64,000 nucleotides of DNA from Actinomycetota bacterium (lineage in GTDB: Bacteria; Actinomycetota; Acidimicrobiia; Acidimicrobiales; JACCXE01): assembly GCA_041166405.1 (NCBI GenBank), contig JBEEFV010000013.1, forward strand, positions 21,927 to 85,926. The letters are read 5' to 3'. Shown piece after piece: positions 22,988 through 51,004 of the stretch (positions within the stretch are counted from its first letter, which is position 1; each line of letters opens with the position of its first letter). Below the pieces are notes generated by a model. The model was not told the DNA's origin. It saw nothing but the letters and a program-made list of their open reading frames with translations, and did no database searches. Position numbers and translations under genes: made by a program.

Positions 22988-23009
22988 TCTTTCGCAATAG
23001 CGTCGGGCG

Positions 23010-26816: not shown

Positions 26817-27461
26817 GTGGAAGCAGTTCGGCGGGAGGGTGATCGCGTCGTGCCCGCTGGGCCGAAGGCCCGGCGCACGCGTGCGCAGCTGATCGAGGCC
26901 GCCACCACCGTGTTCGCGGAGCAAGGCTTTCAGAACTCCGCGGTGGCGCAGATCGCCGAGCGCGCCGGCGTGAGCCTCGGCACCTTCTACCAGTACTTCC
27001 GCAACCGCGACGAGGTGCTGACGGCGATGGTCAACGCCCAACTCGAGTGGATCCGCACCGGGCAAGGCGACGGTTGGCATGTGCGCGACGGCGTCGCCGG
27101 ACTCGAACGCGTGTTGCTCGTGTACGTGAAGGCGTACACGCGCGCCATCGACATGTCGCGCGTGTGGGAGTCGGTCAGCCAGACGGAGCCCGACATGATC
27201 GAGCTACGACGCGCCGCAGGTCGTCGCATCACGGACGGATTCGCGCGCGAGCTGCTGCGCGCCGGCAAGGCCGGTGAGATGCGCACGATGTCGCGACGCG
27301 AAGCGCACCTCACCGCACGCGCGCTTGCGGGGATGATCGACCGCATGTGCTTCGACATGTTCGCGTTCGACCCACCGGAACCGGCGCCGACCGAAGCAGA
27401 GGTGGCGGCGTTGGTCGCGCGGTTGTGGGCGACGGCGCTGGGCTTACAGACCGAAGAGTGA
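26817..27461 (+). CDS. TetR-family transcriptional regulator
   Basis: The TetR HTH is RTRAQLIEAATTVFAEQGFQNSAVAQIAERAGVSLGTFYQYFRNRDEV. The 3' end overlaps the convergent amidohydrolase by 18 nt. Confidence 0.85.
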   Translation: MEAVRREGDRVVPAGPKARRTRAQLIEAATTVFAEQGFQNSAVAQIAERAGVSLGTFYQYFRNRDEVLTAMVNAQLEWIRTGQGDGWHVRDGVAGLERVLLVYVKAYTRAIDMSRVWESVSQTEPDMIELRRAAGRRITDGFARELLRAGKAGEMRTMSRREAHLTARALAGMIDRMCFDMFAFDPPEPAPTEAEVAALVARLWATALGLQTEE

Positions 27462-28565
27462 CGCGGCGTTCGTCCCGAGCACGCGCGTACGCGCGTCGAC
27501 GGACAACGGCGACAGCGCGGTGACGATCGCGTCGTTGGCGTTGACGTCGGCGTCGATGTGCGGGAAGTCACTGCCCCACAGCACGTGATCGGTGCCGACG
27601 AGCTCAACGACTGACGGAATCGTCTTCTCGTGCGGCTCGGCGACGTACCAGACGTTGTTGCGCAGGTAGTCCGACGGTTTCTGCTTGGTCGCTTCCATGA
27701 CGAGGCCGCCGAGGCGACGGAACTTGTCGTCGAGACGGTCCATCACGAACGGCGCCCACCCGCAGCCGGCTTCGACGCACACCACCTTGAGCGTGGGGTG
27801 ACGGTCGAAGACGCGGTCGAGCACCATCGTCGACAGCGTGGGGATCAGCTGGCCCGGCGCGGTGAGGGCGAAACCGAACAGGAGCCCGGGCATCGTCTCG
27901 GACCACGCCGGATAGGGCACGCCTCCGCCGCCGAAGCGCACGACGACGTGCAAGCACACCGGGACGCCGGCCTCGGCGCAACGCGCCCAGATCGGATCGA
28001 AGGCGGCGTCGCCGGGGCGCATCCCGTTGACGGGTTCGGGCGGGAGGAAGACGCCGCGGAAACCCGCCGCAATGCAGGCGTCCAACTCGCGCGCGGCCTC
28101 GGCGGGATCACCGAAGTTGAGCGACGCGATCGGCAGGATGCGCTGCGGCGCCACGGACGCGAACTCGGCCTGCCAGCGGTTGTAGGCGCGGCAGTACGCC
28201 GACTTGAGCGCCTCGTCTTCCGACGGCACCGGGAGAATGCCGATCGTCGGGAACACGACGCCGGCGGTGATGCCCTGCGCGTCGTACATGGCGACGCGGG
28301 CGTGGGGGTCGTACGACGCCGGAGGGTTGCCGTCCTCGTACTTGTAGCCGCTGGTGAACGCCTCCATCGGGTCGAGGTGCGAACCCCCGAGACCGGCGAG
28401 GCTGCCGGTGAGCACCGGCACGTCGGCGATGACGAGCGACTCGACGCCGTCGTTGGTCTCGATGCGAATGGCGCGATCGCGGAACTCGGCCTCGAGATAC
28501 GTCGTCCACAGATCCCGGGGCTCGAGCACGTGCGAGTCGGCGTCGACGACGACACCGTTCAACAC
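27444..28565 (-). CDS. Amidohydrolase_2 (TIM-barrel metal-dependent hydrolase, ACMSD-like)
   Basis: The GTG at 28565 is preceded by AAAGGTGA. The sequence shows VVDADSHVLEP, and near the C-terminus VLWGSDFPHID. This is the last gene of the overlapping 11-gene unit. Confidence 0.8.
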   Translation of the reverse strand: MLNGVVVDADSHVLEPRDLWTTYLEAEFRDRAIRIETNDGVESLVIADVPVLTGSLAGLGGSHLDPMEAFTSGYKYEDGNPPASYDPHARVAMYDAQGITAGVVFPTIGILPVPSEDEALKSAYCRAYNRWQAEFASVAPQRILPIASLNFGDPAEAARELDACIAAGFRGVFLPPEPVNGMRPGDAAFDPIWARCAEAGVPVCLHVVVRFGGGGVPYPAWSETMPGLLFGFALTAPGQLIPTLSTMVLDRVFDRHPTLKVVCVEAGCGWAPFVMDRLDDKFRRLGGLVMEATKQKPSDYLRNNVWYVAEPHEKTIPSVVELVGTDHVLWGSDFPHIDADVNANDAIVTALSPLSVDARTRVLGTNAASLFGL

Positions 28566-28966
28566 GAGATCACCTTTGGAACCGACGGAGGCCGGCCCGC
28601 GTCGTGTTTGAGGAACTTGTCGACGGCGCGCAGATAACCGAGCATGGCTTTGCGTCCGTCGTACACGCCGGGCGACGTGCAGTCCGTCAGCGTGTACGCG
28701 GTGACGGCGGAGTACGCGGCCGCCTGAAGCATCACCGTGCAACGTGGCGACGCACCGTGGTGCTTGCGGCACGCGGCGCCCGCCAGGCGTAGCTTCGTCG
28801 AGATGTCGGCGACGGTTTGACCGGCGCGGGCGCTCGTGACGAACCGCTTGTTGTCGTTCAGCTTGCCGATGCTGTCGTGGACGGCCGAGGGCTTGTCGCC
28901 GCGCACGATGAGGAACGCACCGGTGGCGAGTACGGCCAGCGCGATCAGCAACGCGACGCGCGTCAC
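28559..28966 (-). CDS. Small membrane-anchored hypothetical protein (4 Cys)
   Basis: The GTG start overlaps the upstream stop (GTGA). The N-terminal TM is MTRVALLIALAVLATGAFLIV. I recognised no family. Confidence 0.55.
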   Translation of the reverse strand: MTRVALLIALAVLATGAFLIVRGDKPSAVHDSIGKLNDNKRFVTSARAGQTVADISTKLRLAGAACRKHHGASPRCTVMLQAAAYSAVTAYTLTDCTSPGVYDGRKAMLGYLRAVDKFLKHDAGRPPSVPKVISC

Positions 28967-29481
28967 TTCAGCAGACCAGCCGACAGCTGGTACTCGAGCA
29001 CGTCTCCGGCGATGTCGTCGGGAGCGACCTTGCCCGCCTTGACCTGCAACACCTCGAACAACTTCGGACCGAACCAGAGATACAGCGTGTGGTCAGCGGC
29101 GCTGCTCGACAGCACCTTCAAGTTGCCGACGTAGATGGTGTCGAAACGCGCGCCCGTCATGACGCCGTCGATGATCTGCTTGCGGTCCGCGGCGCGTGTG
29201 AGGTCGACATCGTTCTTCACCGTGCTCGCCTGCAGGGTGCCCACGAGCGTCTGGCCTTTGCGGATCGCCCACACGCGCCCGTCGGCCACGAGCGACGACG
29301 CTCCCGCTTTGGCAAACCGACCGCGCGCCGGCGCGTACTCCCCCACCGTGATGCCGTCGCCGAGGATCTTCGGCGCGAGTTCGGCCGACACGCGCGCCGG
29401 TGCCGCGATCGGCGCGCTGCCGTTGCCGCACGCGCCGGCGAAAAACGCCAGCGCGAGCACGCCGATCACGAGGCGTCTCAC
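28963..29481 (-). CDS. Hypothetical lipoprotein
   Basis: The GTG at 29481 overlaps the upstream stop (GTGA). The signal and lipobox read VRRLVIGVLALAFFAGAC. I recognised no family. Confidence 0.65.
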   Translation of the reverse strand: MRRLVIGVLALAFFAGACGNGSAPIAAPARVSAELAPKILGDGITVGEYAPARGRFAKAGASSLVADGRVWAIRKGQTLVGTLQASTVKNDVDLTRAADRKQIIDGVMTGARFDTIYVGNLKVLSSSAADHTLYLWFGPKLFEVLQVKAGKVAPDDIAGDVLEYQLSAGLLK

Positions 29482-30506
29482 GGAGTCGCCGCCTCGAGCG
29501 GCTTGATCGAGTCGTAGGTGCTGTCGTAATTCAGCACGATCGCCGTCGTGCCCGCCATGGTCGACGTGTGGATGTGCTGCTGGAGGAACAGGCCGTGCAG
29601 CGTGTCGACGCGGTAGACGTTCGGGTCCTGCGCGTCGGTGTCGGAGCGGAAACCCGTCTGCAGGTTGACGATGTGCTCGTTGGAGATCACTTCGTAGGTG
29701 TCGTACAGGGTGCCGCAGACGTCGACGTTCACTCGGCGGTTCACGCTGCCGCTCACGACCATCGACGTACCGGTCTTCTCGTCGGTCCCAGCCGAGTTCC
29801 ACGTCGTGCCCTCGCCCTGACGCAGCGCCATGATCGTGACCGGCGGGTCCGGCGTGAAATCGAGCGTGCCCGACGCCGACTTGATCACGAGATGCGTGAT
29901 GTCGACCTCGCCTTCGGGCGCACGGTTGCCGGTCGCCGTCTGGGTCACCGTCCCCACGGTCGTCGCCGGCGAGTACGTGACCTTGTAGCTCGTCGTCGTC
30001 CCGCCGTCGAGCGAGGGCACGAAGATGTCGTAGGTGTCGACCTCGGTCAGGCCGTTCACTGGGTCATCGGTCGTCGTGTGCGCGAGGTTCTGGATCTGCA
30101 GCAGGCCGTGCGCGGGCATCGGCAGGGTCGCTTGCGTCGGCGGCGTGCCGATCGTGATCTGCCCCTTGCCGTGGGTCGTGTACGTCCCCGCGGGCGGCGC
30201 GTGGCGAATGAACACGGTCGCGGGCTGCTCGGGTGTGTCGTCGGGCGCGGCGACAGGGCAACCGGGAAGCTTCGGCAGCGTGGGTGCGAGCTTCGGCGCG
30301 ACGAAGCCCGGCGCGAGGAACAACGCCTCGTTGGGCACGACGAACTGCGACGGCGTCGTCGGCAGCGGAATGGTTTCGTCCTTGTACGACAGGTCGAGCG
30401 CCAGCCGTTTGAAACCGATGGTGAAGTCGGGACCGTGGCCCCCACCGCACGCCGTCGCTACGAGCGACAGCGCGATGAGGACGACGCCGAGCGAACGCCG
30501 ACGCAT
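29478..30506 (-). CDS. Hypothetical lipoprotein (Thr/Gly-rich beta-type extracytoplasmic protein)
   Basis: The ATG at 30506 is preceded by GAAGGAGG and overlaps the upstream stop (TGATG). The signal and lipobox read MRRRSLGVVLIALSLVATAC. I recognised no family. Confidence 0.7.
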   Translation of the reverse strand: MRRRSLGVVLIALSLVATACGGGHGPDFTIGFKRLALDLSYKDETIPLPTTPSQFVVPNEALFLAPGFVAPKLAPTLPKLPGCPVAAPDDTPEQPATVFIRHAPPAGTYTTHGKGQITIGTPPTQATLPMPAHGLLQIQNLAHTTTDDPVNGLTEVDTYDIFVPSLDGGTTTSYKVTYSPATTVGTVTQTATGNRAPEGEVDITHLVIKSASGTLDFTPDPPVTIMALRQGEGTTWNSAGTDEKTGTSMVVSGSVNRRVNVDVCGTLYDTYEVISNEHIVNLQTGFRSDTDAQDPNVYRVDTLHGLFLQQHIHTSTMAGTTAIVLNYDSTYDSIKPLEAATP

Positions 30507-32719
30507 CACGGCACCTCCTTCGAATACGGCTGCTGCAGTGACAGTCGGGTCAAGTACGACAGGACGCGGGTCTGCAACGGCTGGGCACGGAACAAGCGGC
30601 GCCGCAGCGAGTCGGCGAGCGAGCGCGCCGCGGCGACGTCGGTCGGCGTCATCTCGTCGCGCAACTCGCCGTACAACGCCTTGGTGACGAGCCACGCGAA
30701 CTCCTCGTGCTCGTCGTCCTCGACGACGTAGTCGAGGAACTCGATGGGCGTGGCATACGGGTCGCCGACGCCGAGGTCGGTGGCAAGGTCGCGCAATTCG
30801 CAGTACTCGACGGCAACCTCCGCGGATGGCCCGCGCTCGCGCGCCCAGCGCTGGCGGCGCGCCCGTCGCAACGACTTCTGCCCGTAGGGCAGAGAGAGCC
30901 GACCGACAGCCACGAGCAGCAGCAGCGGCAGGATCGTGCGGAGGATGTCGCGTATCTGCTGGTACAAGGCGCGATAGCTGCGCACTTTGATCGGTACGTA
31001 GATCTGCACGGCGACGGCGTCGCCCGCTTCGATGTTCTTGTCGAACTTGGCGTCGTCGTTGTTGAGTTCGGCCTTCGCCTTCGGCGGCTGCGTGATGATC
31101 GGGATCCACCCGCGGCCCGCAAAGTTCACTTCGAGCCACTGCGACGCGTTGCGCGGCCGCACAGTGTTGACGCCGCCCTCTTGTTGCGAGCCGTCGAAGC
31201 CGAACCCGATGCGAGACGGCACGCCCGCCCAGCGAGCCAGCATTGCTTGGGCGGCGACAAGTTCGAACGGCGAACCCTCGTGGTTGCCGACGAGGATCGT
31301 CTCGACCTTGTGCGGCGTGACGTCCTTCGGCGTACCGCTGCCCACGGCCACTTCGACGGCCGTCAGTTTCTTCAGGAGAAAGTCGACGCGATGGAACGGA
31401 TCCTCCGGCGCCTGCTCGAGCAACGCCTTCACCGCCGGAGGCGCCTTCGGGATCTTGCGATAGACGGGGTCGAGGTGCGTGCCCGCCGTGGCGTCGAACA
31501 ACTGATCCTGCGTCGGGTAGCTCGGTAGCGACTCGGTGTAGACGAGCCCGCCCGGCACGCGCCCTGACGACACGCGGAAGCTTCCGGCGCGCGGGTCGAA
31601 GACAAGTTTCTGCCCACCGGTGAGCACGATCTTCGTCGGCCCGGTGACGCCCGGCAGGTTCGTGTTGTCACCGAAGTCGCGGATCGTGAACTTGACCGTG
31701 ACGTCGCCGTTGCGCGCCGCGTCGATCACGCCGTCGGGCGGCACCTTCACGAACGACTTCGGGTTGAACGGCGGCAGGCGCCAGGTCTTGCCGTCGTAGT
31801 CGTCGAGCGACCCGACTTTCCACGGGCCCGTGATGGGTCCGTCGACTTCGAACAGCACGCGATCGGCAGCGGCGTTGAGCGGGATCGGCTTCGGCTTCTG
31901 CGCCTTTTGCGCCGGGTCGTACGCCGGCGCCGGGAACAGCACGTTGGTGCTGTTCAGCATCACGATGACCGCGAGGATGCCCGCCAAGTAGACGACGGCC
32001 TTGACGATGCGTCGGACCTCGAACTCGCGCGTGAGCCCGCTCACGCCGCCTTGATCGCCGAAGAGCACGGTCAGCCCGGCGATGACGGGAACGACGGCGA
32101 GAACGCCCGCCAGCGCCTCGCCGCTCTTCGGTTGGCTGATGGCGGTGAGGCCGAGCAGTGGCAGCGGGATGACCAGCGCCAGGCGTGGTCGCTCGAGCGT
32201 CGTCCCCGCAGTACCGGCCGCGAAGCCGAGCAGCACCATCACGACGACGAGGATCGGCCGCCATCCGGCGTCGAAGGGGATGGGCGGACGCAGCGCACGC
32301 CCCGCGTCGATGGCGTCGCGCACGAGCGACGGCAAATGCGACGGGCCGGCGGCGGATCCGATCGTCACGCTGAGGACGGCGAGGCCGAAGGCGACGACCG
32401 GCAGCAGCAGCTGCATCGACTGGCGGCGCCGCGACCGCGCGCACACCCACGACCAACCGATGCCGACGAGTGCGGCCACCACGCACAGCAGGCGTGCGCC
32501 CCACGAACCGAAGATGCCGCCGACGGTGAGCGCGGTCCCGAGCATCGAGAACGCCGCCACGATCAGCGGGCGCAGCGGGACGTCGATCGGCCCCTCGTCC
32601 TCAGGTTCTGGGCGCGCAGAATCCGGGTTTCCGGGATCTGACGCGCCCAGTTCGCCGAGGAGCGTCGTCGTGTCGAGAACGTCGGTCTCTTCGGTCGGTG
32701 GTGTGAGCGTGGTCGCCAT
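30506..32719 (-). CDS. Polytopic transglutaminase-like protein (TgpA-like architecture: N-terminal TM bundle, TGase-like core, extra TM, DUF4129-like tail); the core is apparently non-catalytic
   Basis: The ATG is at 32719 (MATTLTPPTEE). There are about 6 N-terminal TM segments. The core GSPFELVAAQAMLARWAGVPSRIGFGF...SQWLEVNFAGRGWIPIITQP aligns by eye to G.C..FA......LR..GIPAR.V.G...HAW.EV...G.GW..FDPT. It has Pro, Ser and Ile at the Cys, His and Asp positions. Confidence 0.8.
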   Translation of the reverse strand: MATTLTPPTEETDVLDTTTLLGELGASDPGNPDSARPEPEDEGPIDVPLRPLIVAAFSMLGTALTVGGIFGSWGARLLCVVAALVGIGWSWVCARSRRRQSMQLLLPVVAFGLAVLSVTIGSAAGPSHLPSLVRDAIDAGRALRPPIPFDAGWRPILVVVMVLLGFAAGTAGTTLERPRLALVIPLPLLGLTAISQPKSGEALAGVLAVVPVIAGLTVLFGDQGGVSGLTREFEVRRIVKAVVYLAGILAVIVMLNSTNVLFPAPAYDPAQKAQKPKPIPLNAAADRVLFEVDGPITGPWKVGSLDDYDGKTWRLPPFNPKSFVKVPPDGVIDAARNGDVTVKFTIRDFGDNTNLPGVTGPTKIVLTGGQKLVFDPRAGSFRVSSGRVPGGLVYTESLPSYPTQDQLFDATAGTHLDPVYRKIPKAPPAVKALLEQAPEDPFHRVDFLLKKLTAVEVAVGSGTPKDVTPHKVETILVGNHEGSPFELVAAQAMLARWAGVPSRIGFGFDGSQQEGGVNTVRPRNASQWLEVNFAGRGWIPIITQPPKAKAELNNDDAKFDKNIEAGDAVAVQIYVPIKVRSYRALYQQIRDILRTILPLLLLVAVGRLSLPYGQKSLRRARRQRWARERGPSAEVAVEYCELRDLATDLGVGDPYATPIEFLDYVVEDDEHEEFAWLVTKALYGELRDEMTPTDVAAARSLADSLRRRLFRAQPLQTRVLSYLTRLSLQQPYSKEVP

Positions 32720-33945
32720 CAGCCCATCCCCGCGCCGACGGAATGACGGAACGCGACGGCGAGTGGCACGTTCGGGCGGATCTCGACGACCTGTGCCCCG
32801 AGGGCGGACGCGCGCGCCAGGGTCTCGGCCGACTCGTCGCCCCACATGAGCGCGGCGATCAGCACGGACGTGCCGCGCTGCAACACGAGGTCGAGGCGCG
32901 CCGCGCTGGCGGCGTCGAGGCGGGGCGTGACCACGACCAAGTGCGTGTTGGCGCCGCCGCCGTTGTTGATGACGCGCGACAACGCGTCGGCCAGCGGCGC
33001 CTTGACGCGCTCGACGCGCGCCAACGCGTCGAGCATCGGGATCTGCGCCGCCGGGCCGCGCAACGGCACCACGAGGCGGTCAGTCGAACCCTCGAGCAGC
33101 ACTGAGAAGCCGTCGCGCAAGTCGCGAACGCCGACCGACGCCGCCACCTTCACGCCGGCTTCGAACGATCCGCTCACCTCGCCGCGACTGTGGAAGGTGA
33201 CGTCCTGGTCGAGCAGGATCGTGACCTTGTCGGTGATGCCCTGCTCCGCTTCGCGGACGAGCAACTGGCCGGTGCGGGCATACGCGCGCCACACGATGCG
33301 GCGCACGTCGTCGCCGGGCGAGTACTGACGCATCCCGTAGAACTCGAAGCCGCTCGGCCACGGCCGGCTGACGGGCGGGCGGAAGGGCGGGTCCTCGAAC
33401 ATGCGCGTGAGCGGGCGGTCGCTCACCTCTTCCACCATCGGATGCACCAGCACCTCGACGGGTTCGACGAGCGTCATCTCGCGTCGCGTCAAACCGAACG
33501 GGTCGCCGTAGCGAGCCACGAGCGGACCGAGTTCGTACAGACCACGGCGACGGCACGTGAGGTTGTACGTGTGCTCGACGCTCTCGTCCGGCTCGATCAC
33601 GGCGACGGGCAGCGGCGCGGCTTCACCGAGCGCCGGCGGCACGATTTCCTCGACGACGAACGTCGAGACGCGCCGCGGCGCCCGCAGCGTGATTTCCATC
33701 GGCAGGGTTTCACCGACGCGCAGGCGCGGCCGGCTTTCCGATCGCTGCGCCTCGACCGGGATCGGGCGACGGCCGATGACGTAACTGGCGACGAGCAACA
33801 CCACGAGCGTGTAGCTGACGATGTACAGCGGGCGTCCGCCGATGAACCGCGCGATGCCCCACGCCACCACGGCCAAGGCCGCGACGATCAAGCCCGACGA
33901 CGTCAGGCCTGTTCGTTGCGTGACGAGCTCGCGCCAGCGCGTCAT
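32719..33945 (-). CDS. DUF58-domain protein (MoxR-associated, vWA-like)
   Basis: There are two N-terminal TM segments. The DUF58 signature is FEFYGMRQYSPGDDVRRIVWRAYARTGQLLVREAEQ. Start and stop overlap both neighbours. Confidence 0.85.
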   Translation of the reverse strand: MTRWRELVTQRTGLTSSGLIVAALAVVAWGIARFIGGRPLYIVSYTLVVLLVASYVIGRRPIPVEAQRSESRPRLRVGETLPMEITLRAPRRVSTFVVEEIVPPALGEAAPLPVAVIEPDESVEHTYNLTCRRRGLYELGPLVARYGDPFGLTRREMTLVEPVEVLVHPMVEEVSDRPLTRMFEDPPFRPPVSRPWPSGFEFYGMRQYSPGDDVRRIVWRAYARTGQLLVREAEQGITDKVTILLDQDVTFHSRGEVSGSFEAGVKVAASVGVRDLRDGFSVLLEGSTDRLVVPLRGPAAQIPMLDALARVERVKAPLADALSRVINNGGGANTHLVVVTPRLDAASAARLDLVLQRGTSVLIAALMWGDESAETLARASALGAQVVEIRPNVPLAVAFRHSVGAGMG

Positions 33946-34949: not shown

Positions 34950-37891
34950 GAGATTCCTCCAGAACGATTGATGGCTTCTTCGCTCGTACCGAGGTACGAC
35001 GCGACGACTTGTGGGTGTTCGAGTACGGCGCTCGCTTCGCCGCGGGTAACGACGGCGCCGAGTTCGAGGGCGAGCAGTTCGTCCGACACGGCTTGGATCA
35101 GCGGCATGTCGTGCTCGATGACGAGCAACGAGCAGCCCGTCTCGTAGCGGATGCGGCTGAGCAGCGGGCCCAGCTCCTCGGCTTCCTTCTGCGCGATGCC
35201 GGACGACGGTTCGTCGAGCAGGAGTACCTGCGGCTCGGCCGCCATGACGCAGGCCATGTCGACGATGCGGCGTTGACCGGTCGACAGCTCGCGGACGAAC
35301 TTGTCGCGTGCGACTCCGAGGGCGAACAGCTCGATCAGACGGTCGACGCGTTCGCTGACCTTCGCCTCGGCGCGGCGCACGTTCGGCAGGCGCAGCGCGC
35401 CGGCGGCGACGCTGCGCACTTCGAGGTGACGCTCGAGCGCGATGGCGATGTTTTCCTTCACCGTCAGCGACGGGAACAGGCGCGCGTCCTGGAACGAGCG
35501 CAGCAGCCCGTGGTTGACGCGCTGGTCGGGCGTCAGGTCGGTGATGTCTTCGCCGAGCAATTCGATCGTGCCTGCGGTCGGCGGCACGAAGCCCGAGATG
35601 ATGTCGAAGAGCGTGGTCTTGCCCGCCCCGTTCGGACCGATGATCCCGAGCGCCGTGCCCTGGTCGAGGGTGAAGCTGACGTCGTTGACGGCGCGGATGC
35701 CGCCGAAGTGCACGCTCACGTTTCGCACGTCGAGCGCTTTCGCGGCGTGCGCGTCGACCGCCGCGGTCTCGTACGTGCGCACGGCGATACGGCCTCGGCC
35801 CACGCCGGATCCCTTGAGGTACACCGAGCGCAGGATGTCGGGCCGGCGCAGCAACTCGGCGGTCGAGCCCGTGAACTTCACTTCGCCCTTCTCCATGAAC
35901 ACGGCACGCTTGGCAAGCGTCAGCGCGACGTTGACCGACTGCTCGACCAGGATGATCGTCGTGCCCTGCGCGGCGATGGCGCGCACGATCTCGAGAAGTT
36001 GCTCGACCACGACGGGCGCGAGACCGAGCGACAGCTCGTCGATGATCAACAGCCGAGGCCGCGCCAGGAACGCTTGGGCGAGCGTGAGCATCTGCTGCTC
36101 ACCGCCCGACAGGTTCGACGCGTCGTCACCGGACCGCTCACGCAGGATCGGGAAGTAACCGAACACGACCTCGTGGTCCACGGGCTCGTCGCCGTCGCGC
36201 CGCGCGAACGACGCCATCTTGAGGTTCTCGGCAACGGTGAGGCCGCCGAAGACGCCCTTGCCTCCGGGCACGACGGAGATGCCGCGCGTGACGTGTTCGT
36301 GCGGCGGCAGATACGTGATGTCCTCGCCGTCGTAGAAGATGGCGCCGTTGCTTGGAGCGGTGATCCCGCCGATGGCGCGCAGCAACGTCGACTTGCCGGC
36401 GCCGTTCGTCCCGAGCAGCGCCACGATCTCGCCCTCGTCGACTTCGAAGTCGACGTTGAACAGCACCTGCCCGGTCCCGTACTTCACGTCGACGTCACGG
36501 CACACCAGCAACTTCGCCTGGCCGCTCGCCTTGGCGTCGCGCGACACCTGCGCCGCCATGGCGGCGGCGAGCGCGGCGCGGATGTCGGCCTCGACGCTGG
36601 CGCCACCCGACATGAGGATGAAGGCACCGATCAGGAAGATCGGTGTGAGCACGAGAATGCCGCCGCGCAAACCGAAGTGGTCACCGATTGCACCGGCGAT
36701 CGCGAAGATCACGTAGCCGGGCACGATCGCCAGTACGCCGATCGCCAACGCCAGGCCGCGCACGCGCGCGGGGATCACGACGGTGATCAGCGCCTGCGTG
36801 GCGGGGCCGAGGACGTAGGCCGTGAACGAGAAGACGCAAGCGAACAACACCGCCATCGGCAGCACCGGCGAGATAGCGACGAGCGCGCACGACAGGCCCG
36901 ACACCACGGCCATGCCGCCGGCGTAGGAGATGACGCGTCCCGGTCGCTCCGACATCAAGCGCGATGCGATCGACGAACTGACGAGCAGGCCGAGCATGGC
37001 CGCGCCCTGGCTGAGCCCGACGATGACGCCGCGGCCGCCAGGCCCGACGTGGAACACGTCGTCGAAGAACAGCGAGAACAGCGTCAGGATCGCCAGGCCG
37101 GGGCCGACGAGGAACGGGAGGGCGTACAGAATGCGCCGCAGCGTGCGGACGTTCCAGGCGACGCGGAACGCCTCGCCCACCGACGGCGGTCGCTCCTCCA
37201 CGAGCGCGTCCTCTTCGCTCGCACCTTGCAGGCGACGCTCCCACGCGCCGCGTACGGGCTCACGCAGACGCGCCGCGGCAACAGCGAGGATGATCGCCGG
37301 GACCGCGAGCACGATGAACACGAGTTGCCACGGCGCGAACGACGCGATGAACCCCGCCAGCACCGGGCCGAGCGCGCCGCCGGCGAGCATCGCGAACTGG
37401 CGGTACGCGAACACACTGGCGCGGGCGTCCGGCGGGTAGTAGTCGGCGAGTAGCGACGAGTGCGCAGGCGCGAATGCTTGGCCGGCGCCCGAGCCGACGC
37501 GCATCAAGGTGAACAACAGCAGCGTCGGCGCCAAGCCCGTGAAGATCCCGAACACGCCGATGGCAAGCGCGCCCACGGCGGTCAGGCGCGTGCGCGACCA
37601 GCGGTCCGACGCGATGCCCATCGGCACCGCGAGGACCAGTGTCAGGACACCGGTCAGCGCGACGAGGAACGTGACGCGGGTGACGTCGAGGCCGAAGTAG
37701 TCGCGGATCTCGGGCGTGAGCACGCCGAGCGCGCCCTTGTCCATCTCGTCGATGAGCACGATGGCGAACAGCACGACCATCGGCAACAGCGGCAAGCCTG
37801 CGAATTGCGCCAGCGCCCGCCGCATCTGGTTTCGGCTCTGGCCTGGTTCCGGTACGGAATCGAGACCAGTTCGCTCGAGGAGGTCGGTCAT
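34946..37891 (-). CDS. Triple-fusion protein: 12-TM MFS domain + LivF-like ABC ATPase + LivG-like ABC ATPase
   Basis: The ATG at 37891 has GGAGG 5 nt upstream. The MFS part spans approximately 36600-37800 and carries the motif A-like GIASDRWSRTRL. NBD1 spans approximately 35815-36511 (GTNGAGKSTLL, LSGGEQQML, LLIIDELSLGLAP, ...RSVYL). NBD2 spans approximately 34949-35737 (FGGIRAVNDVSF, GPNGAGKTTLF, LSTGQRRIV, LLLDEPSSG, VVASYLG). Confidence 0.85.
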   Translation of the reverse strand: MTDLLERTGLDSVPEPGQSRNQMRRALAQFAGLPLLPMVVLFAIVLIDEMDKGALGVLTPEIRDYFGLDVTRVTFLVALTGVLTLVLAVPMGIASDRWSRTRLTAVGALAIGVFGIFTGLAPTLLLFTLMRVGSGAGQAFAPAHSSLLADYYPPDARASVFAYRQFAMLAGGALGPVLAGFIASFAPWQLVFIVLAVPAIILAVAAARLREPVRGAWERRLQGASEEDALVEERPPSVGEAFRVAWNVRTLRRILYALPFLVGPGLAILTLFSLFFDDVFHVGPGGRGVIVGLSQGAAMLGLLVSSSIASRLMSERPGRVISYAGGMAVVSGLSCALVAISPVLPMAVLFACVFSFTAYVLGPATQALITVVIPARVRGLALAIGVLAIVPGYVIFAIAGAIGDHFGLRGGILVLTPIFLIGAFILMSGGASVEADIRAALAAAMAAQVSRDAKASGQAKLLVCRDVDVKYGTGQVLFNVDFEVDEGEIVALLGTNGAGKSTLLRAIGGITAPSNGAIFYDGEDITYLPPHEHVTRGISVVPGGKGVFGGLTVAENLKMASFARRDGDEPVDHEVVFGYFPILRERSGDDASNLSGGEQQMLTLAQAFLARPRLLIIDELSLGLAPVVVEQLLEIVRAIAAQGTTIILVEQSVNVALTLAKRAVFMEKGEVKFTGSTAELLRRPDILRSVYLKGSGVGRGRIAVRTYETAAVDAHAAKALDVRNVSVHFGGIRAVNDVSFTLDQGTALGIIGPNGAGKTTLFDIISGFVPPTAGTIELLGEDITDLTPDQRVNHGLLRSFQDARLFPSLTVKENIAIALERHLEVRSVAAGALRLPNVRRAEAKVSERVDRLIELFALGVARDKFVRELSTGQRRIVDMACVMAAEPQVLLLDEPSSGIAQKEAEELGPLLSRIRYETGCSLLVIEHDMPLIQAVSDELLALELGAVVTRGEASAVLEHPQVVASYLGTSEEAINRSGGIS

Positions 37892-40074
37892 CAGTACCTC
37901 CACCCAGGGCCGGACTGGCTGGCGCCGGTCGTGCGGATACGAGACGGCTGGCGGTAGTTGGCGCCGACGGGTTCCGGGTCGGCTTTCGGCGTGAGCGGCG
38001 CGCGGTCGACGACGCCCGCGGCGGCGGCGTAATCGGTCAGCAGGCTCGGCACCCAGATGCGGCGACGGATGGCGATACGACGCAGCACCGCATCACGCGC
38101 CGCGTACGCCATCGACCCGAGACCGCCCGGGAACGCGTACAGCACGATCAGCACGCCGAAGGCGCTCGCGAACAGGCGCCCGATGTCGCCGTGGATCGTG
38201 AAGTTGACGATGGCGAAATACAGCGCGCCGAGCAGCGCGCCCTGCACAGAACCGAGCCCGCCGATGACGGCGGTGAGAAAGATCTGCACGCTCGCTTCGG
38301 GGCCGAACGACTGGGCGTCGAGCGCGTGCTCGTGCGCCACGAACAAGACGCCGGCGGCCGACGCCATGAAGCCCGAGAGCGCGAACGTGAGCAGGCGCGT
38401 GCGCACGAGGTTGACGCCGTAGGACTGCGCGGCGCGTTCGTTGTCGCGCATGGCGATGAGCACGCGGCCCGTGCGCGACTTGCGCAGACCCGTTGCCGCG
38501 AACACGGCAAGCGCTAAACCGACCAGACACACGTAGTAGTACGCGCGGTTGTCGTCGGTCTTGATGAAGAGCATCACTGGGCGGCTGACGCTGCGCGGGG
38601 CGTACTTCCCGAGGTGCGACTGGTCGAGGATGATCGTGTTCGTGACGATGGCGAACGCCAGCGTCGTGACCGCGAGGTACAGCCCTCGAATGCGCAGCGC
38701 CGTGAGACCGAGAATCATCGCCACGACGGCGCCGGCGGACGCACCGGCGAACAGCGCGATCAGGAACGGCAGGTGCAGCTTCCCGATGCAGATACCGCCG
38801 ATGAGCGCACCGACACCGACGAGCGCGTACTGCCCAAGGCTCACTTGACCGCCCCAACCCGTCAGCATCACGAGGCTGATCACGACGATCCCGTCGATGA
38901 GCACGAGGCTGCCGAGGTTCACCTGGCTCGGCGACATCACCAACGGGAACGCGAGGACGACGACGACGAGGAGCCCGACGAACCGGCGCACACCCGTCTT
39001 CACGATGTTGAGGTTGGCCAACTCGGTGGGTATGGGCCTGACCTCTTCGGTCGCCGACCACGTCGAACTCGACGACTCGTCGGTGCGGCCCAGTCGCTTC
39101 CGCTGCACCAAGAAGCCGACGAGGATGACACCGAGCAGTACCGCGTTCACGACGGCGCTGTCGTGGTAGTGGTAGGACGACGCGTCGACGACGAACGAGA
39201 TGCCGACCGAGGCCGCGATCGTGAGCGGAAGGCTGTCCATGCCGGCGACGACACCGGCGGCCAACGCGATCAGCAGCGACACGCCAATGGTCGACGTCGC
39301 TGCATTGGGGCTGTAGCCGTAGATCGGGATCTGCAGCGCGGCGGCCAAGCCGGCCAGGAGTCCCGCGATCGTCCACACGATCGTCGACAGCGACCGCACG
39401 TTCACACCGAGCTCGCTCGCACGATCGCTGTTCTGCGCCGCGCCGCGCACCGCCACGCCGAGCTTCGTGTAGCGCAAGAACGCGCCGAGCCCGAGCAGCG
39501 CGGCGGACGCCAACACGAGCAACATCGCCCAGTCACCGCGGAACAGCGAGCCGCCCCAGTGGAACTTGGAGTTGAACAGCGGCGAGCGGAAGAACACCAC
39601 CGGGTCGTCCTTGTGGCCGATCCAACCGGGGAAGGCGCCCGAGATGCCGCCGAGCAATTGCGCGACGCCGAGCGTGACCACCGCCAGGATCAACCGCGCC
39701 GAGCGGAAGAACCGGCGGACGAACATCAGCTCGACCAACGCGCCTGCTGCACCCGCGGCCAGCACCGCCGCCGGCAGTGCGATCCAGTACGAGACGTCGA
39801 GCGACGCGGCGAGCCCGTAGAACAGGACGTAGGCGACGGCGAAGAATCCGCCGTGCGCGAAGTTGATGACGCGACTGGCGCGGTACACGAGAACCAGGCC
39901 GACGGCGAACAGCGCGTCGAGCAGCCCGACGGCTACGGACGTGAACAGGAGCGGCCACATGCGGCCGCGCGCGATAGGCGTGTGCTGGTGGATGATCGAG
40001 AGCGCCTCGACCGTCGCCAGCAGCACCAGCGCGAGCGCGACCGCCCCACCGCGCCGGAGCGCGTTCGAGTTCAC
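37891..40074 (-). CDS. Fused LivH-LivM-type branched-chain-amino-acid-family ABC permease
   Basis: The GTG at 40074 overlaps the upstream stop (GTGA). The first half is LivH-like (VLVYRASRVINFAHGGFFAV...RGAAQNSDRASELGVNV). The second half is LivM-like (LTGWGGQVSLGQYALVGVGA...GRVLIAMRDNERAAQSYGVN). The upstream 414 codons of the 1141-aa track ORF are read-through of another frame. Confidence 0.85.
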   Translation of the reverse strand: MNSNALRRGGAVALALVLLATVEALSIIHQHTPIARGRMWPLLFTSVAVGLLDALFAVGLVLVYRASRVINFAHGGFFAVAYVLFYGLAASLDVSYWIALPAAVLAAGAAGALVELMFVRRFFRSARLILAVVTLGVAQLLGGISGAFPGWIGHKDDPVVFFRSPLFNSKFHWGGSLFRGDWAMLLVLASAALLGLGAFLRYTKLGVAVRGAAQNSDRASELGVNVRSLSTIVWTIAGLLAGLAAALQIPIYGYSPNAATSTIGVSLLIALAAGVVAGMDSLPLTIAASVGISFVVDASSYHYHDSAVVNAVLLGVILVGFLVQRKRLGRTDESSSSTWSATEEVRPIPTELANLNIVKTGVRRFVGLLVVVVLAFPLVMSPSQVNLGSLVLIDGIVVISLVMLTGWGGQVSLGQYALVGVGALIGGICIGKLHLPFLIALFAGASAGAVVAMILGLTALRIRGLYLAVTTLAFAIVTNTIILDQSHLGKYAPRSVSRPVMLFIKTDDNRAYYYVCLVGLALAVFAATGLRKSRTGRVLIAMRDNERAAQSYGVNLVRTRLLTFALSGFMASAAGVLFVAHEHALDAQSFGPEASVQIFLTAVIGGLGSVQGALLGALYFAIVNFTIHGDIGRLFASAFGVLIVLYAFPGGLGSMAYAARDAVLRRIAIRRRIWVPSLLTDYAAAAGVVDRAPLTPKADPEPVGANYRQPSRIRTTGASQSGPGWRY

Positions 40075-41117
40075 TGGCCCGTCACCGTCGTCACGAGTTC
40101 GCCCAACGTGTGCACGCGCACGGTGCCGCGCCGGCCGGGCTTCTTGATAACGACAGCATTTGGCGCAGGCGCCAAGTCGAGGCTGAGCGTGAGGTCGCCG
40201 CGATCGATGCTCGTCAGTTGCTGGCGCAGCTTCACTTCGAAGCGTTTCAAGTCGCCGTGCGTGTCGAGCCAGAACTTGGCTGGGAAGACGCGGCGGGTGA
40301 CCGCATTGGCTTTGAACTCTTTGTCGAGCACTTTGCGCGCGTGTTCGCTCAGGCCCCGCTCCGCTTTGTCGCGGCTGACATTGGCGTCGTAGCGCACGAG
40401 GCTCTCGCGCTCGGCGCCGCGCCGTTCGATGCTGCCGGTCAGCACACCCTTGGTGAGGCGCAACAGGTCGACGGGATTGACGGCGATGCTGCCGGCGTGC
40501 TTGGTCTTGTCGTGATCGGCGATGCCCGCGTAGTCGAACGCCGCCCATTCGCGCACGATCTGCACGCGGCGGCGCAGCAACGACGGTGCGGCCGTGGTGC
40601 TGGTCGTCGTGGTCGTCGGCAGCGTGAAGTTCGGTGATGCGATCGACGAACTCGTCGTGGCGCCGGTCGTCGCTGGCTCGGGCGCGGGCACGAGCTGGCT
40701 GCTGTACTCCGCGGCGAGTGCGTTGAAGTTGCTGGGCACACTCGCCGTGAGACGGTTGCCGGCGACCTGCACCGACTTCGCCGCGATGCGCTGGTAGATC
40801 GCGCCACCGGCGAACAAGATCGCCGGTTTCCCGCTGGGAGTGTTCGTGCCGACTTCTGCCGTCCGCGCGGGAGCGTTGATCACGACGCCGATCTCGTTGA
40901 CATGCTCCGGCGCGATGCGCGCCGGGCCCGGAGCGATCGGCTTGTCGGACTTCACGATTTGCACGCGCGCTTCGAGGACACCGGTGACCGACGGTGCCTT
41001 CAGCAAACGCTCGCCGGCGTGGACGATGCGCGTCGCTTGCGCGTCGCGCTCGCCGAGCCCGCACGCGCCACTCACGACGGCGACCACCAACACCAGGCCG
41101 ATGCACGTGCGGGTCAT
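40071..41117 (-). CDS. Hypothetical two-domain lipoprotein embedded in the ABC transporter gene set
   Basis: The ATG overlaps the SBP stop (ATGA). The signal and lipobox read MTRTCIGLVLVVAVVSGAC. A Thr/Ser/Pro-rich linker (PAPEPATTGATTSSSIASPNFTLPTTTTTSTTAAPS) sits between two halves. I recognised no family. Confidence 0.7.
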   Translation of the reverse strand: MTRTCIGLVLVVAVVSGACGLGERDAQATRIVHAGERLLKAPSVTGVLEARVQIVKSDKPIAPGPARIAPEHVNEIGVVINAPARTAEVGTNTPSGKPAILFAGGAIYQRIAAKSVQVAGNRLTASVPSNFNALAAEYSSQLVPAPEPATTGATTSSSIASPNFTLPTTTTTSTTAAPSLLRRRVQIVREWAAFDYAGIADHDKTKHAGSIAVNPVDLLRLTKGVLTGSIERRGAERESLVRYDANVSRDKAERGLSEHARKVLDKEFKANAVTRRVFPAKFWLDTHGDLKRFEVKLRQQLTSIDRGDLTLSLDLAPAPNAVVIKKPGRRGTVRVHTLGELVTTVTGQ

Positions 41118-42775
41118 ACCGGCGCCAGCGAGATGCTCGACGGTTTGTTGTCGAAGACGTCAGGGTCTTCGGAGGGCCACTGGTCGTACGTGTAGCGCTG
41201 CCCGCCGCGCACCCAGCGGTACGTGCCCTTCTGACCGTCCGAACCCATGGCGTTGCGGTCCCACCAGATCTCGGCGGCCCAGTCGGGGTACGTGTGGTCG
41301 TTGATGTCGTACCCACCGGCCATGTGCCACGGCGGGTTCGGCGACAGCTTCGGCTGCTTGACGAGCGCCGACTTCAGCGATTCCGCACTGAGTTTCGGTC
41401 CGGCGTTCTGCATGGCGCCGAACAGCTGCACCATGTCGCCCCACATGTACGTGCACATGCCGCTATCGGGGTCGTTGCTCGGGTCGATCTCGTGGTACGC
41501 CTTGTAGCACTCGGTCTCTTCGTCGGGCTTCGGGATCTCGTAGAGCGAGAAGCCGAACGCGTGGCTCCACTCGTCCTGGTCGTAGTCACGCGCGATGTGC
41601 CCCGTGTCGACGCCACCGAAGCCGGGGATGAACCACTCGGGGAAGTAGTTGTCGGACTTTGCGATCTGCGTGAAGGGCACGGCGCTGATGAGGTCGCCGA
41701 GATAGAAGATCGTTGTGACCTGCGCGGTCTGCATGGTGCCGATGGCCGACGCCAGCCCCTGGACGTTGTCCTTGGCGAGGTCGTACGTCACCACGGGGTC
41801 GATGTCGACGTTGCACTCGGACTTGAGCAGCGCCTTGATGGTCGGGCCCGGGTTGTCGTAGGCCGGCAGGTTGTAGACGATGGCGCCGACCTTGCGCACC
41901 TTCTTGAGCGACAGTGTCGGATCGTCGGTGAACTTCGGCGGCTTGCCGGCGAGCTTCTTGCAGTAGTACTCGGCGCCGAGACGGATGTCCTGGCTGCCCG
42001 ACGGCGTGAAACTCCAGAGGTACGGGTCGTGATCGGCGAACCACTTCTCCGGGGTCTGCGCCTGCGTGAAGTGCAGGATGCCGCGCTTGGCGAGTTCGTC
42101 CGACGCCGCGGGGTTCGTCTCCTGCACGGCGGCGAAGCAGTGATCGGTGTCCTTCGCCTTGTCGGCCCGCGCGCGCGCCTGCGCGTCGTCCTGCTTCGAG
42201 TTGTCGTTCGTCGGATAGAAGAAGTGCAGCTGCCGCCCGTAGAACTGGTAGCGCGAGTTGAAGTAGTCGCGCAGCACTTTGTAGGTGCGCATGTTCGCCG
42301 AGTCGTTCGGCGCGACCGGGCCCTTCATCTCGCCGTCGCTGCTGACGGTGCCCGTCAACTCCGCGAGGTAACAGACGTTGATCGAGTCCGCGGTGACGCC
42401 GAACGCCGTCGCCCCACCGTTGTCGCCGGTGAAGGCCGGCGCGCACGGCGGCGAGTAGATCGACTCGATCTGGCGCGGCGGGTCACCGAAGCCGTACGGG
42501 CATGCCGACGACCTCTTGTTCTTCTTCGGCGGGATCGTCGTGGTCGGTTCGGGCTCGACGCCCGCGGCGGTGCCGCTGCGCGCCGAGTTGAACGACGAGA
42601 ACACCGACGGCTGGTTCTTGTCGGGCGGGGCATCGGGCGAGAACGCGCTCGACGTCTGGGGCTGGTCCTGCGGCGGCCGCAGCACGGACGGCAGGATCAT
42701 CAACCCGAGGATGAGCGCGAGCGCACCGGCCAGCGCGGGCGCCAGCCGATCACTGCGCTTCGGACCGCGCCCCAC
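41114..42775 (-). CDS. Membrane-anchored ABC substrate-binding protein (divergent type-1 periplasmic-binding fold, LivK-like)
   Basis: The start is GTG. The N-terminal anchor is LAPALAGALALILGLMILPSVL, followed by a low-complexity linker. The body is about 440 aa with an alternating beta-alpha pattern and conserved Cys pairs. The position immediately upstream of the Liv-type permease and ATPases supports the call. The fold assignment is inferred. Confidence 0.65.
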   Translation of the reverse strand: MGRGPKRSDRLAPALAGALALILGLMILPSVLRPPQDQPQTSSAFSPDAPPDKNQPSVFSSFNSARSGTAAGVEPEPTTTIPPKKNKRSSACPYGFGDPPRQIESIYSPPCAPAFTGDNGGATAFGVTADSINVCYLAELTGTVSSDGEMKGPVAPNDSANMRTYKVLRDYFNSRYQFYGRQLHFFYPTNDNSKQDDAQARARADKAKDTDHCFAAVQETNPAASDELAKRGILHFTQAQTPEKWFADHDPYLWSFTPSGSQDIRLGAEYYCKKLAGKPPKFTDDPTLSLKKVRKVGAIVYNLPAYDNPGPTIKALLKSECNVDIDPVVTYDLAKDNVQGLASAIGTMQTAQVTTIFYLGDLISAVPFTQIAKSDNYFPEWFIPGFGGVDTGHIARDYDQDEWSHAFGFSLYEIPKPDEETECYKAYHEIDPSNDPDSGMCTYMWGDMVQLFGAMQNAGPKLSAESLKSALVKQPKLSPNPPWHMAGGYDINDHTYPDWAAEIWWDRNAMGSDGQKGTYRWVRGGQRYTYDQWPSEDPDVFDNKPSSISLAPV

Positions 42776-42870
42776 AGATCGAACACTCGTTATTGCAGGT
42801 CCCCCAACCGGTAATTCAGAAATCTGACGCTACTCTCAGGTTCGGGCACTGGTCAACGCGGGCAGGCAAG

Positions 42871-43500
42871 ATGCGCGTTATGGACAAGTCGCAGATCTGG
42901 GCCACCATCCACGCCGAACGCAAGGCGCTCGCGGCCGACCTCGAAGGCCTCACCGAGCAGCAGTGGGCGACCCCGTCGTTGTGCACTGGTTGGACCGTAC
43001 GAGACGTGCTCGCCCACATGACAGGTACAGCGGAAAAGACGACGCTCAACTTCTTCCCAAGTCTCGTCGCCAACGGTTTTTCGCTGTCGAAGCTCCAGAA
43101 CAAGGACATCAAACGCGTCGAGGCAACGGGCGACGTGCTCGGCGCGTTCAAGGGCGCGATGGGCAAGTCGACATCGCCCCCCGGCCCGACGATGACGTGG
43201 CTCGGCGAGACCCTCGTGCACGGCGACGACATCCGTCGGCCGCTCGGCATCACCTACGACTATCCCGCTGACGCCGCCGCCGCGGTCGCGGATTCCTACA
43301 AGGCGACGAACCTCGTCATGGGGTCGAAGAGGCGCATCGCCGGCGTGAAACTCGTCGCCACGGACACCGACTGGTCACACGGCGACGGACCCGAAGTGCG
43401 CGGACCGATGATGGCCCTGCTGATGGCGATGGCGGGCCGCGCCGCGGCGATGAGCGACCTGTCCGGCGAAGGCGCGCAGACGCTCAGCGCGCAGCTGTAG
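42871..43500 (+). CDS. DinB/MDMPI-family (mycothiol-dependent maleylpyruvate isomerase N-terminal domain) protein
   Basis: The sequence shows ERKALAADLEGLTEQQWATPSLCTGWTVRDVLAHMTG. The start is the ATG at 42871 or 42880. Confidence 0.75.
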   Translation: MRVMDKSQIWATIHAERKALAADLEGLTEQQWATPSLCTGWTVRDVLAHMTGTAEKTTLNFFPSLVANGFSLSKLQNKDIKRVEATGDVLGAFKGAMGKSTSPPGPTMTWLGETLVHGDDIRRPLGITYDYPADAAAAVADSYKATNLVMGSKRRIAGVKLVATDTDWSHGDGPEVRGPMMALLMAMAGRAAAMSDLSGEGAQTLSAQL

Positions 43501-50897: not shown

Positions 50898-51004
50898 GGC
50901 TCCTCCGAAGAGAGGCCCAGGCGGTCGGCCAATCCTTAGACGCTTCCCGGCGGTGAGACCCACCCTCTGCCCGCCAGTCGCAAGTGGCAATAGTCTCCCA
51001 CGCC

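Follow-up and report, generated by a model that had tools for sequence, protein, structure and literature searches.

A 64,000-nucleotide stretch of an uncultured soil actinomycetote of the order Acidimicrobiales (GCA_041166405.1, contig JBEEFV010000013.1, positions 21,927 to 85,926; the window, below) carries a run of minus-strand genes, here called g1 to g11, in which an ATP-binding cassette (ABC) importer of the Liv/Urt type is followed by a module comprising a MoxR-type AAA+ ATPase, a DUF58 protein and a TgpA-like protein. Comparison with related genomes and metagenomes firmly supports g1-g9 as a conserved, co-inherited unit in Acidimicrobiales-type Actinomycetota. We lean toward the view, at somewhat better than even chances, that these nine genes encode a single two-module membrane system, and that the MoxR module is a dedicated, specificity-matched helper of the importer with which it is paired.

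The linkage of the two modules was examined in both directions. In the forward direction, an alignment of the major facilitator superfamily (MFS) domain of g4 was scanned against one genome per GTDB species; this gave 80 loci, on which g1-g11 were mapped by tblastn, and the gene content was determinable in 52. In 18 of these (class A), g3-g4-g5-g6-g7-g8-g9 are contiguous with g1 and g2 nearby, and the MoxR module lies immediately downstream of the MFS-LivF-LivG fusion gene g4. The remaining 34 (class B) have g3-g4-g1 only, sometimes with g2. The class-A loci are spread over at least 12 species-level metagenome-assembled genomes (MAGs) and all carriers of the full unit that were found are uncultured; class B includes Microthrixaceae, Aldehydirespiratoraceae, Ilumatobacter and two cultured Nonomuraea. 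A neighbor-joining tree of g4 places class A in one clade plus one deep branch (L067). On contigs whose g4 homologs are 81, 60, 54 and 52% identical to that of the window, g2 and g3 lie upstream of g4, and the MoxR, DUF58, TgpA-like, g8 and g9 genes lie directly downstream; BLASTP finds g1 on all four, relocated in two of them to the 3′ end after g9.

In the reverse direction, an alignment of the TgpA-like protein g7 was scanned against metagenomes and yielded 78 loci. All 25 with a full flank (8 kb or more to each side of g7) also carry g3/g4, upstream of g7 in 23 and downstream in two. Those two, and several loci cut by contig ends, have the permuted order g5-g6-g7-g8-g3-g4, and in L119 the ABC genes lie between g8 and g9. 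A looser g7 set contains four loci without an ABC match, all of them cut on the side where the ABC genes are expected. The linkage spans g4 proteins from 100% down to about 45% identity, and g7 proteins down to about 33%. The neighborhood comparison proposed in the first-pass annotation of this DNA, which was made from the sequence alone, therefore found the ABC and MoxR genes to be a co-inherited unit, and related genomes did not show them at unlinked positions. That annotation had described an eleven-gene unit, of which nine genes proved to be conserved (g10 is an occasional accessory and g11 lineage-specific, see below). We also note one aberrant locus, L144 (8181-10867), in which a permease gene is directly followed by no more than the C-terminal third of a TgpA-like gene, with g4, g5 and g6 missing; this locus has either suffered a deletion or been chimerically assembled.

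Table 1. Features of the importer-MoxR region (window coordinates)
Feature	Position	Strand	Basis
g1, membrane-anchored LivJ-type (Peripla_BP_6-like) substrate-binding protein, 553 aa	41114..42775	-	one N-terminal transmembrane segment, no lipobox
g2, lipoprotein, 348 aa	40071..41117	-	signal peptide and lipobox Cys
g3, fused LivH-LivM (UrtB-UrtC-like) ABC permease, 727 aa	37891..40074	-	BPD_transp_2 (PF02653) in two stretches, 199.5 bits
g4, MFS (Spinster-like) domain with LivF-type and LivG-type ATPase domains, 981 aa	34946..37891	-	MFS_1 127.7 bits; two ABC_tran, 209.9 bits
g5, MoxR-type AAA+ ATPase, 334 aa	33945..34949	-	AAA_3 204 bits; AAA_lid_2 68.4 bits
g6, DUF58 protein with two N-terminal transmembrane helices, 408 aa	32719..33945	-	DUF58 39.9 bits (cutoff 23.4); transmembrane residues 18-52
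g7, polytopic TgpA-like protein with transglutaminase-fold domain, 737 aa	30506..32719	-	TgpA_N 33.5 bits (cutoff 30); Transglut_core 28.9 bits (cutoff 23)
g8, lipoprotein, 342 aa	29478..30506	-	lipobox Cys20; two further invariant Cys
g9, small alpha/beta lipoprotein, 172 aa	28963..29481	-	lipobox Cys18
g10, small N-terminally anchored protein, 135 aa	28559..28966	-	one transmembrane segment
g11, Amidohydrolase_2 family protein, 373 aa	27444..28565	-	Amidohydro_2 116 bits
Divergent intergenic region 5′ of g1	42776..42880	no strand	sole non-coding gap at the 5′ border of the unit

The reading frames were re-derived, and 27444-42775 holds 11 successive minus-strand open reading frames, g1 first and g11 last (Table 1), each with a length that is a multiple of three, starting with ATG or GTG and having no stop codon before the one at its end. 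As originally described, all ten junctions overlap: ATGA at 41114-41117, GTGA at 40071-40074 and TGATG at 37889-37893 between g1 and g4; ATGA at 34946-34949, TAATG at 33943-33947 and TGATG at 32717-32721 between g4 and g7; and TGATG at 30504-30508, GTGA at 29478-29481, GTGA at 28963-28966 and GTGTTGA at 28559-28565 between g7 and g11. The start choices match full-length alignments to the orthologs in locus L001, and the signal peptides of g2, g8, g9 and g10 begin at the chosen start codons. A JGI call for g9 (P0187, 168 aa) starts four codons further in, which would turn the overlap into a short gap and strip the signal peptide of its Arg-Arg n-region. Across 16 related loci, 56 of the 94 junctions from g3 to g9 can overlap, g3-g4 in 16/16 and g8-g9 in 14/15, and class-A junctions are, with one exception, all compact (an overlap or a gap of at most 75 nt). 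The unbroken overlap chain, thought at first to be the unusual feature, is thus real but marks the far end of a general trend and is not unique to this locus; the seam between the ABC and MoxR genes, g4-g5, overlaps in only 2 of the 16 relatives. Simple scans found no sigma-70-like promoter inside the unit, and terminator-like hairpins are not enriched there (13 vs. 8.4 ± 3.1 in shuffled sequence; all weak and all within coding sequence). The presumed promoter region, from its position, is 42776..42880, in which neither a sigma-70 consensus nor an Rfam element was found.

Several genomes carry more than one copy of the system. One MAG bin contains four class-A copies (L008, L014, L018 and L021) and another contains three (L009, L012 and L019); in a multi-copy MAG the nine-gene units would make up about 55 kb of a genome of roughly 4 Mb; the 64-kb window itself has no second copy. 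Every gene has diverged between copies within a genome (identities of 59-71% for MoxR, 55-61% for g4 and 34-40% for g1), which indicates that the clusters were duplicated as wholes long ago and have been kept complete. The extracytoplasmic members diverge fastest (25-40% identity for g1, g2 and g8) and the cytoplasmic ones slowest, a pattern that fits copies differing in outer-face specificity. Among 17 clusters, pairwise distances of g3/g4 and of g5/g6/g7 are correlated with r = 0.78-0.89, values as high as those within modules.

Could the two modules be independent operons that travel together, by hitch-hiking or for shared regulation, with no physical or mechanistic coupling? Both do exist apart elsewhere, the transporter in class B and the triad as PA2875-PA2872 of Pseudomonas aeruginosa (PMC3507681), and g4-g5 is the least often overlapped junction. 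On the other hand, the linkage persists across the full range of g4 and g7 identities given above, it survives permutation of the modules, relocation of g1 and ancient duplication of whole clusters, and it holds in every one of the fully flanked reverse loci. Given the permutations, the relocations and this reverse linkage, pure hitch-hiking is very unlikely.

The importer module (g1-g4) has the hallmarks of the HAAT family: two BPD_transp_2 domains, LivG/LivF ATPases with intact motifs, and a binding protein of a Peripla_BP_6-type family. The g1 protein of the window has no Pfam match of its own; because 9 of 16 family members match Peripla_BP_6 (PF13458; best E 1.2e-12), it is assigned as a divergent, transmembrane-anchored LivJ-type binding protein, and the family profile gives weak matches to LivJ-like binding proteins in the PDB. 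A g1 gene is kept in every class-A locus, although its position and strand vary. The g2 gene is present in nearly all class-A loci (there is no tblastn match in L067, and the upstream flank is missing in L007); it also occurs in some class-B loci that lack MoxR (L026, L033, L046 and L049) and so travels with the transporter. Other class-B loci (L024, L031, L043 and L047) show that MoxR-less transporters often have two tandem binding-protein genes, and L001 has, beyond the unit, a second Peripla_BP_6 gene and a further ABC ATPase gene (20568-22943).

By NCBIfam, the N-terminal half of g3 is UrtB/LivH-like and the C-terminal half UrtC/LivM-like, with about 18-22 hydrophobic segments in all. In g4, residues 464-694 are LivF/UrtE-like and residues 718-969 LivG/UrtD-like, and the Walker A motif, the signature and the Walker B D-E are kept in 50/50 family members. 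Its MFS domain shows 11 hydrophobic peaks and a motif-A-like D-R-x-x-R between TM2 and TM3 (transmembrane helices 2 and 3), whose D96, R97 and R100 are invariant in alignment A1; across 50 sequences D96 and R100 are 100% and R97 98% conserved. The best PDB relatives of this domain are the bacterial Spinster homolog HnSpns (6e8j, E 1.4e-21) and human SPNS1 (3.3e-18), with profile matches that cover mainly residues 38-222, the N-terminal half. The domain calls made in the first-pass annotation were borne out by Pfam and NCBIfam. The MFS-LivF-LivG family is large, with more than 3,400 matches; the best 120 come mostly from Acidimicrobiales MAGs, and nearly all of them, a few truncated entries aside, have the same architecture of about 950-1050 aa. 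An MFS domain fused to two Liv-type ATPases is an unusual transporter architecture, and it is widespread in the Acidimicrobiales.

No substrate from the known classes (branched-chain amino acids, urea, amides, aromatic acids) can be assigned, since none of the equivalog models attains its cutoff on one domain alone. The NCBIfam equivalog scores of g3 are all far under cutoff, and an anion:cation symporter model ranks first on the MFS domain, far under its own cutoff. A urea transporter was considered and rejected: UrtE scores above cutoff, but only as a sum over two ATPase domains, and the scores for UrtD and the permease fall short of theirs. No riboswitch or other Rfam element that might hint at the substrate was found upstream of g1. 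Genomes with three or four nine-gene sets invest heavily in the system, and so it likely matters for substrate acquisition by abundant uncultured soil actinobacteria.

Within the MoxR module, g5 is the most conserved gene of the whole unit (69-87% identity), and its Walker A (GVGKS/GTGKT) and Walker B (DE) motifs are kept in all 17 sequences examined. The DUF58 gene g6 directly follows g5 in every class-A locus with an intact region and in every sufficiently flanked metagenome locus. At the expected metal-ion-dependent adhesion site (MIDAS) g6 has LLDQDxxxHS, not DxSxS, which may not be the norm for DUF58; of this position only the first Asp is kept in most sequences, while the His-Ser further on is nearly invariant (one Thr).

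In contrast to the catalytic motifs of g5, those of g7 are gone. When it is aligned to the periplasmic domain of P. aeruginosa TgpA (6g49), the active-site Cys is replaced by Pro, the His by Ser and the Asp by Ile. The Cys-equivalent is Pro in 17/17 class-A proteins and 69/69 metagenome relatives (86/86 in all), and in alignment A8 this residue, Pro484 of g7, is invariant (16/16); the His position is mostly Ala or Ser among the relatives, and the Asp position Val, Ile or Leu. Fold residues around the dead site (ARWAGVPSRIGFGFDG, QWLEV and GW.P) are nearly invariant. Replacement of the Cys-His-Asp triad throughout the family argues that g7 is not an active transglutaminase, and by sequence it is a pseudoenzyme, a transglutaminase fold without active catalysis, whose domain probably has a conserved non-catalytic role in binding. 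The earlier description of g7 as a transglutaminase-like protein therefore stands for its TgpA_N and Transglut_core domains but not for an enzyme of that kind, and on this evidence a whole branch of TgpA-like proteins are pseudoenzymes.

A conserved, non-catalytic cleft could also serve a sensor. On this reading, the dead transglutaminase-fold domain and the lipoproteins would sense an extracellular cue, and MoxR and DUF58 would switch the importer from the cytoplasmic side. The pseudoenzyme domain does keep its former active-site cleft, the Bifidobacterium PFNA cluster has been discussed as a signaling module linked to a Ser/Thr kinase (PMC8430577), and the MoxR module begins at a junction where a short gap is the rule. 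Yet the unit has no conserved gene for a kinase, a response regulator or a DNA-binding protein, and an AAA+ motor would be an expensive switch. A signal-transducing regulator therefore seems improbable to us, though it overlaps with the helper role that we favor, since gating of the importer is one option there too.

The lipoproteins g8 and g9 appear to be two new families. For g2, g8, g9 and g10 no Pfam family or PDB sequence match was found (scans and profile searches with 15-17 members each of g2, g8 and g9, 15 for g2, gave chance-level matches only), and profile-profile comparison detected no homology among g2, g8 and g9. All 66 homologs of g8 are annotated as hypothetical. Its AlphaFold2 model (53 homologs; mean predicted local distance difference test score, pLDDT, 80.7) has a disordered tether of about 60 residues and a large antiparallel all-beta domain, with pLDDT above 90 over about residues 105-331; in Foldseek it is weakly similar (TM-score at most 0.41) to YmcC-like, DynF and mycobacterial LmcA beta-barrel-like proteins. 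The g9 model (44 homologs, mean pLDDT 83.2) is a small alpha/beta sandwich with weak likeness (TM-score at most 0.49) to roadblock-like, PsbP and TiME folds. With such low scores from confident models, neither protein was assigned to a fold family. Of the four uncharacterized envelope proteins to which the first-pass annotation drew attention, g2, g8 and g9 are conserved members of the unit, and g10 is not.

Gene fusions tie the two lipoproteins to g7. In the subclade with the order g7-g9, the two genes share one uninterrupted reading frame in 22 of 28 loci, with a linker made up of a stretch rich in Arg, a hydrophobic helix and, in most cases, a lipobox that has been kept; g7 is likewise joined to g8 in four loci. 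A profile search of 1.84 billion representative proteins gave a g9 family of 271 members, and among the best 150 of these, 28 are proteins of 640-1400 aa with the g9 domain at the C-terminus. Seven of the scanned long matches carry Transglut_core, and the long forms are independent gene-caller predictions. The g7-g9 and g7-g8 fusions speak for direct contact of g9, and probably of g8, with the TgpA-like protein as they work, g9 behaving as a detachable domain of it. They also fit a topology in which the transglutaminase-fold domain lies outside, the C-terminal domain of g7 inside and g9 outside again. Linkers that retain an n-region rich in Arg, followed by a hydrophobic helix and a lipobox Cys, are seen at L108, L116, L121, L127, L129, L147, L152 and L162 (g7-g9) and at L093 and L095 (g7-g8); such a linker is a possible internal lipoprotein signal, cut after insertion so that the lipoprotein is freed from the polytopic protein. 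One g9 fusion to a TgpA-like protein (P0341, 1397 aa) has an extra C-terminal DUF4434 domain (86 bits).

The structural relatives of g4 and g8 suggest a rather different role, trafficking of envelope lipids or lipoproteins, in which the Spinster-like MFS domain and the beta-barrel-like lipoprotein would handle an amphipathic component that the ABC and MoxR motors shift between membrane and wall. The nearest solved relatives of the MFS domain are indeed lipid transporters of the Spinster family, the top Foldseek matches of g8 (DynF, LmcA and YmcC-like) bind lipid or hydrophobic ligands, and the unit has three lipoproteins. These structural matches are weak, however, NCBIfam puts the MFS domain nearest to anion:cation symporters (below threshold), and up to four diverged copies per genome look more like nutrient diversification. 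HAAT systems with LivJ-type binding proteins import small polar or aromatic solutes, which also speaks against a lipid cargo. We regard this role as quite improbable.

How, then, might a MoxR module help an importer? The most likely form of coupling is an accessory complex that is dedicated to the importer, draws its power from MoxR and would act at the importer's outer face. In the arrangement that we propose, the first module would be a HAAT-family (Liv/Urt-type) ABC importer in two large polypeptides, g3 and g4, with which the g1 binding protein and the g2 lipoprotein belong. The second would consist of the cytoplasmic MoxR protein g5, the membrane-anchored DUF58 adaptor g6 and the polytopic g7, whose outward-facing dead transglutaminase-fold domain would be a binding scaffold, with the lipoproteins g8 and g9 beside it on the outer face of the membrane. 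ATP hydrolysis by MoxR would be relayed through DUF58 and g7 to the outer-face proteins, and the relayed work may go into remodeling, loading, resetting or gating that side of the matching importer which captures the substrate. The MoxR module would then be neither a general assembly chaperone nor an enzyme.

The assembly role raised in the first-pass annotation, here taken as that of an assembly or quality-control chaperone, nevertheless deserves consideration. Here g5-g9 would only fold, insert or mature a large transporter of two polypeptides and more than 30 transmembrane segments, and would take no part in the transport cycle. MoxR/vWA pairs do mature specific complexes (NorQ/NorD, CbbQ/CbbO and CoxD/E), and every transporter copy keeps its own MoxR set. 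But transporters of the same architecture and size do without the module at 34 loci, those of cultured Nonomuraea among them, which argues against a general need for it in transporter assembly and suggests that it is a clade-specific add-on; g4 has no class-specific insertions; and three of the five module members (g7 with its transglutaminase-fold domain, g8 and g9) have domains outside the cytoplasm, beyond what a cytoplasmic insertion helper would need. We therefore consider a pure chaperone unlikely.

Several observations weigh against the helper role itself. The same class-B loci show that this type of transporter can be encoded with no MoxR module adjacent, and the search of g4 for class-A-specific insertions that might form a docking site gave none, with 2 discriminating positions only. 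At the g4-g5 seam, loci without an overlap have gaps of 3-61 nt, which leaves room for separate regulation of the two modules. The distance correlations partly mirror shared phylogeny. One locus, L149 (1-9000), has the order g1-g3-MoxR-DUF58-g7 with no g4 match anywhere in 18 kb. The folds of g8 and g9 give weak structural matches only, and help could also run the other way, with the importer serving the MoxR module. Even so, the MoxR-DUF58-TgpA triad is here tied to an identifiable partner across deep divergence, permutation of gene order and duplication of whole clusters. The importer is thus a candidate client, named here for the first time, of an enigmatic and widespread MoxR module, and the linkage provides a hypothesis on what that module acts on.

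A bolder form of the helper role, which we offer as a long shot, is that the g5-g9 complex is a trans-membrane energy transducer. The work of the AAA+ motor would be passed to the extracytoplasmic lipoproteins, so that a monoderm could actively extract a bound, possibly amphipathic or polymer-derived substrate or pass it on to the matched importer. If this is true, the complex would be a functional counterpart of TonB- or Sus-type energized capture, and the widespread MoxR-DUF58-TgpA triad would gain its first defined client and job.

The genes at the 3′ end of the run are less closely tied to it. Homologs of g10 follow g9 in L001 and L007, lie beside g2 in L011, L016, L020 and L022, and are absent from the other class-A loci; by this distribution g10 is an occasional accessory. 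Linkage of g11 after g9 is restricted to the two closest relatives, L001 (86% identity) and L007 (64%), and of the four contigs compared above only the closest relative has g10 and g11. A 65% identical g11 homolog lies on the opposite strand about 2.4 kb past g9 in L105, and Amidohydro_2 genes recur loosely near L009, L087, L088 and L105. As g11 is linked to the unit in its closest relatives only, it was rejected as a core pathway enzyme, and the initial proposal that the imported compound is processed by this amidohydrolase has little comparative support.

A TetR-family regulator gene (26817-27461, plus strand) converges on g11, the 3′ ends overlapping by 18 nt. The flanks of the unit in the window look catabolic, with a DMFA2_C protein (23001-24470), YdjC, two short-chain dehydrogenases, an Abhydrolase_3 esterase and an MDMPI-like protein, and on the same four contigs the flanking genes vary from locus to locus. 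Judged from gene content, g11 and the TetR and catabolic genes beside the unit are local neighbors specific to the lineage. Elsewhere in the window there is a full-length ZMP/ZTP riboswitch (RF01750) at 50908-50991 on the minus strand (49 bits vs. a gathering cutoff of 39), which is unrelated to the unit.

In a literature search neither a MoxR-ABC importer unit nor an MFS-LivFG fusion turned up as a described system, in agreement with the original impression that such a combined system had not been described. Both modules are nonetheless of known kinds. The importer shares two BPD_transp_2 domains, LivG/LivF ATPases and a Peripla_BP_6-type binding protein with LivJ/LivHMGF and UrtABCDE (HAAT, TC 3.A.1.4). 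It differs from them in that the permeases are fused in one chain, the two ATPases form a single polypeptide with an N-terminal MFS domain of 11-12 transmembrane helices, and the binding protein is about 150 aa longer and anchored by a transmembrane segment. The best solved-structure relatives of the MFS domain, the Spinster proteins (HnSpns 6e8j, SPNS1 and SPNS2), share its motif-A Asp/Arg, but the likeness is mainly in the N-terminal half, and g4 is no more than a putative member of that family. We know of no Spinster protein that is fused to ABC ATPase domains.

MoxR/vWA pairs with a defined client include RavA-ViaA, NorQ-NorD, CbbQ-CbbO and CoxD-CoxE. In these an AAA+ MoxR protein is encoded with an adaptor beside the genes of its target complex, an arrangement like that seen here. 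Their clients are redox or carbon-fixation enzymes, whereas the neighboring genes here encode a transporter, the adaptor role would fall to a DUF58 protein whose MIDAS position is non-canonical, and the module extends through the membrane.

The nearest known triads include no transporter. In P. aeruginosa the MoxR, DUF58 and TgpA genes of PA2875-PA2874-PA2873/TgpA-PA2872 are co-transcribed, and TgpA has a conserved triad and transglutaminase activity in vitro (PMC3507681). That operon has the same triad of genes in the same order as g5-g7, and its large TgpA domain likewise faces outside the cytoplasm (PMC3507681). All three catalytic residues are replaced in g7 and its relatives, by Pro, Ser/Ala and Ile/Val/Leu, and no ABC importer is reported alongside PA2875-PA2872, which also lacks g8 and g9 lipoproteins. 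The PFNA cluster of Bifidobacterium, pkb2-fn3-aaa-atp-duf58-tgm, is an actinobacterial example of a MoxR-DUF58-transglutaminase-like triad that forms part of a bigger conserved cluster, surface proteins included (PMC8430577). There the triad is accompanied by a Ser/Thr kinase and an FN3 adhesin; the unit described here has no conserved kinase or FN3 gene, and has a transporter in their place.

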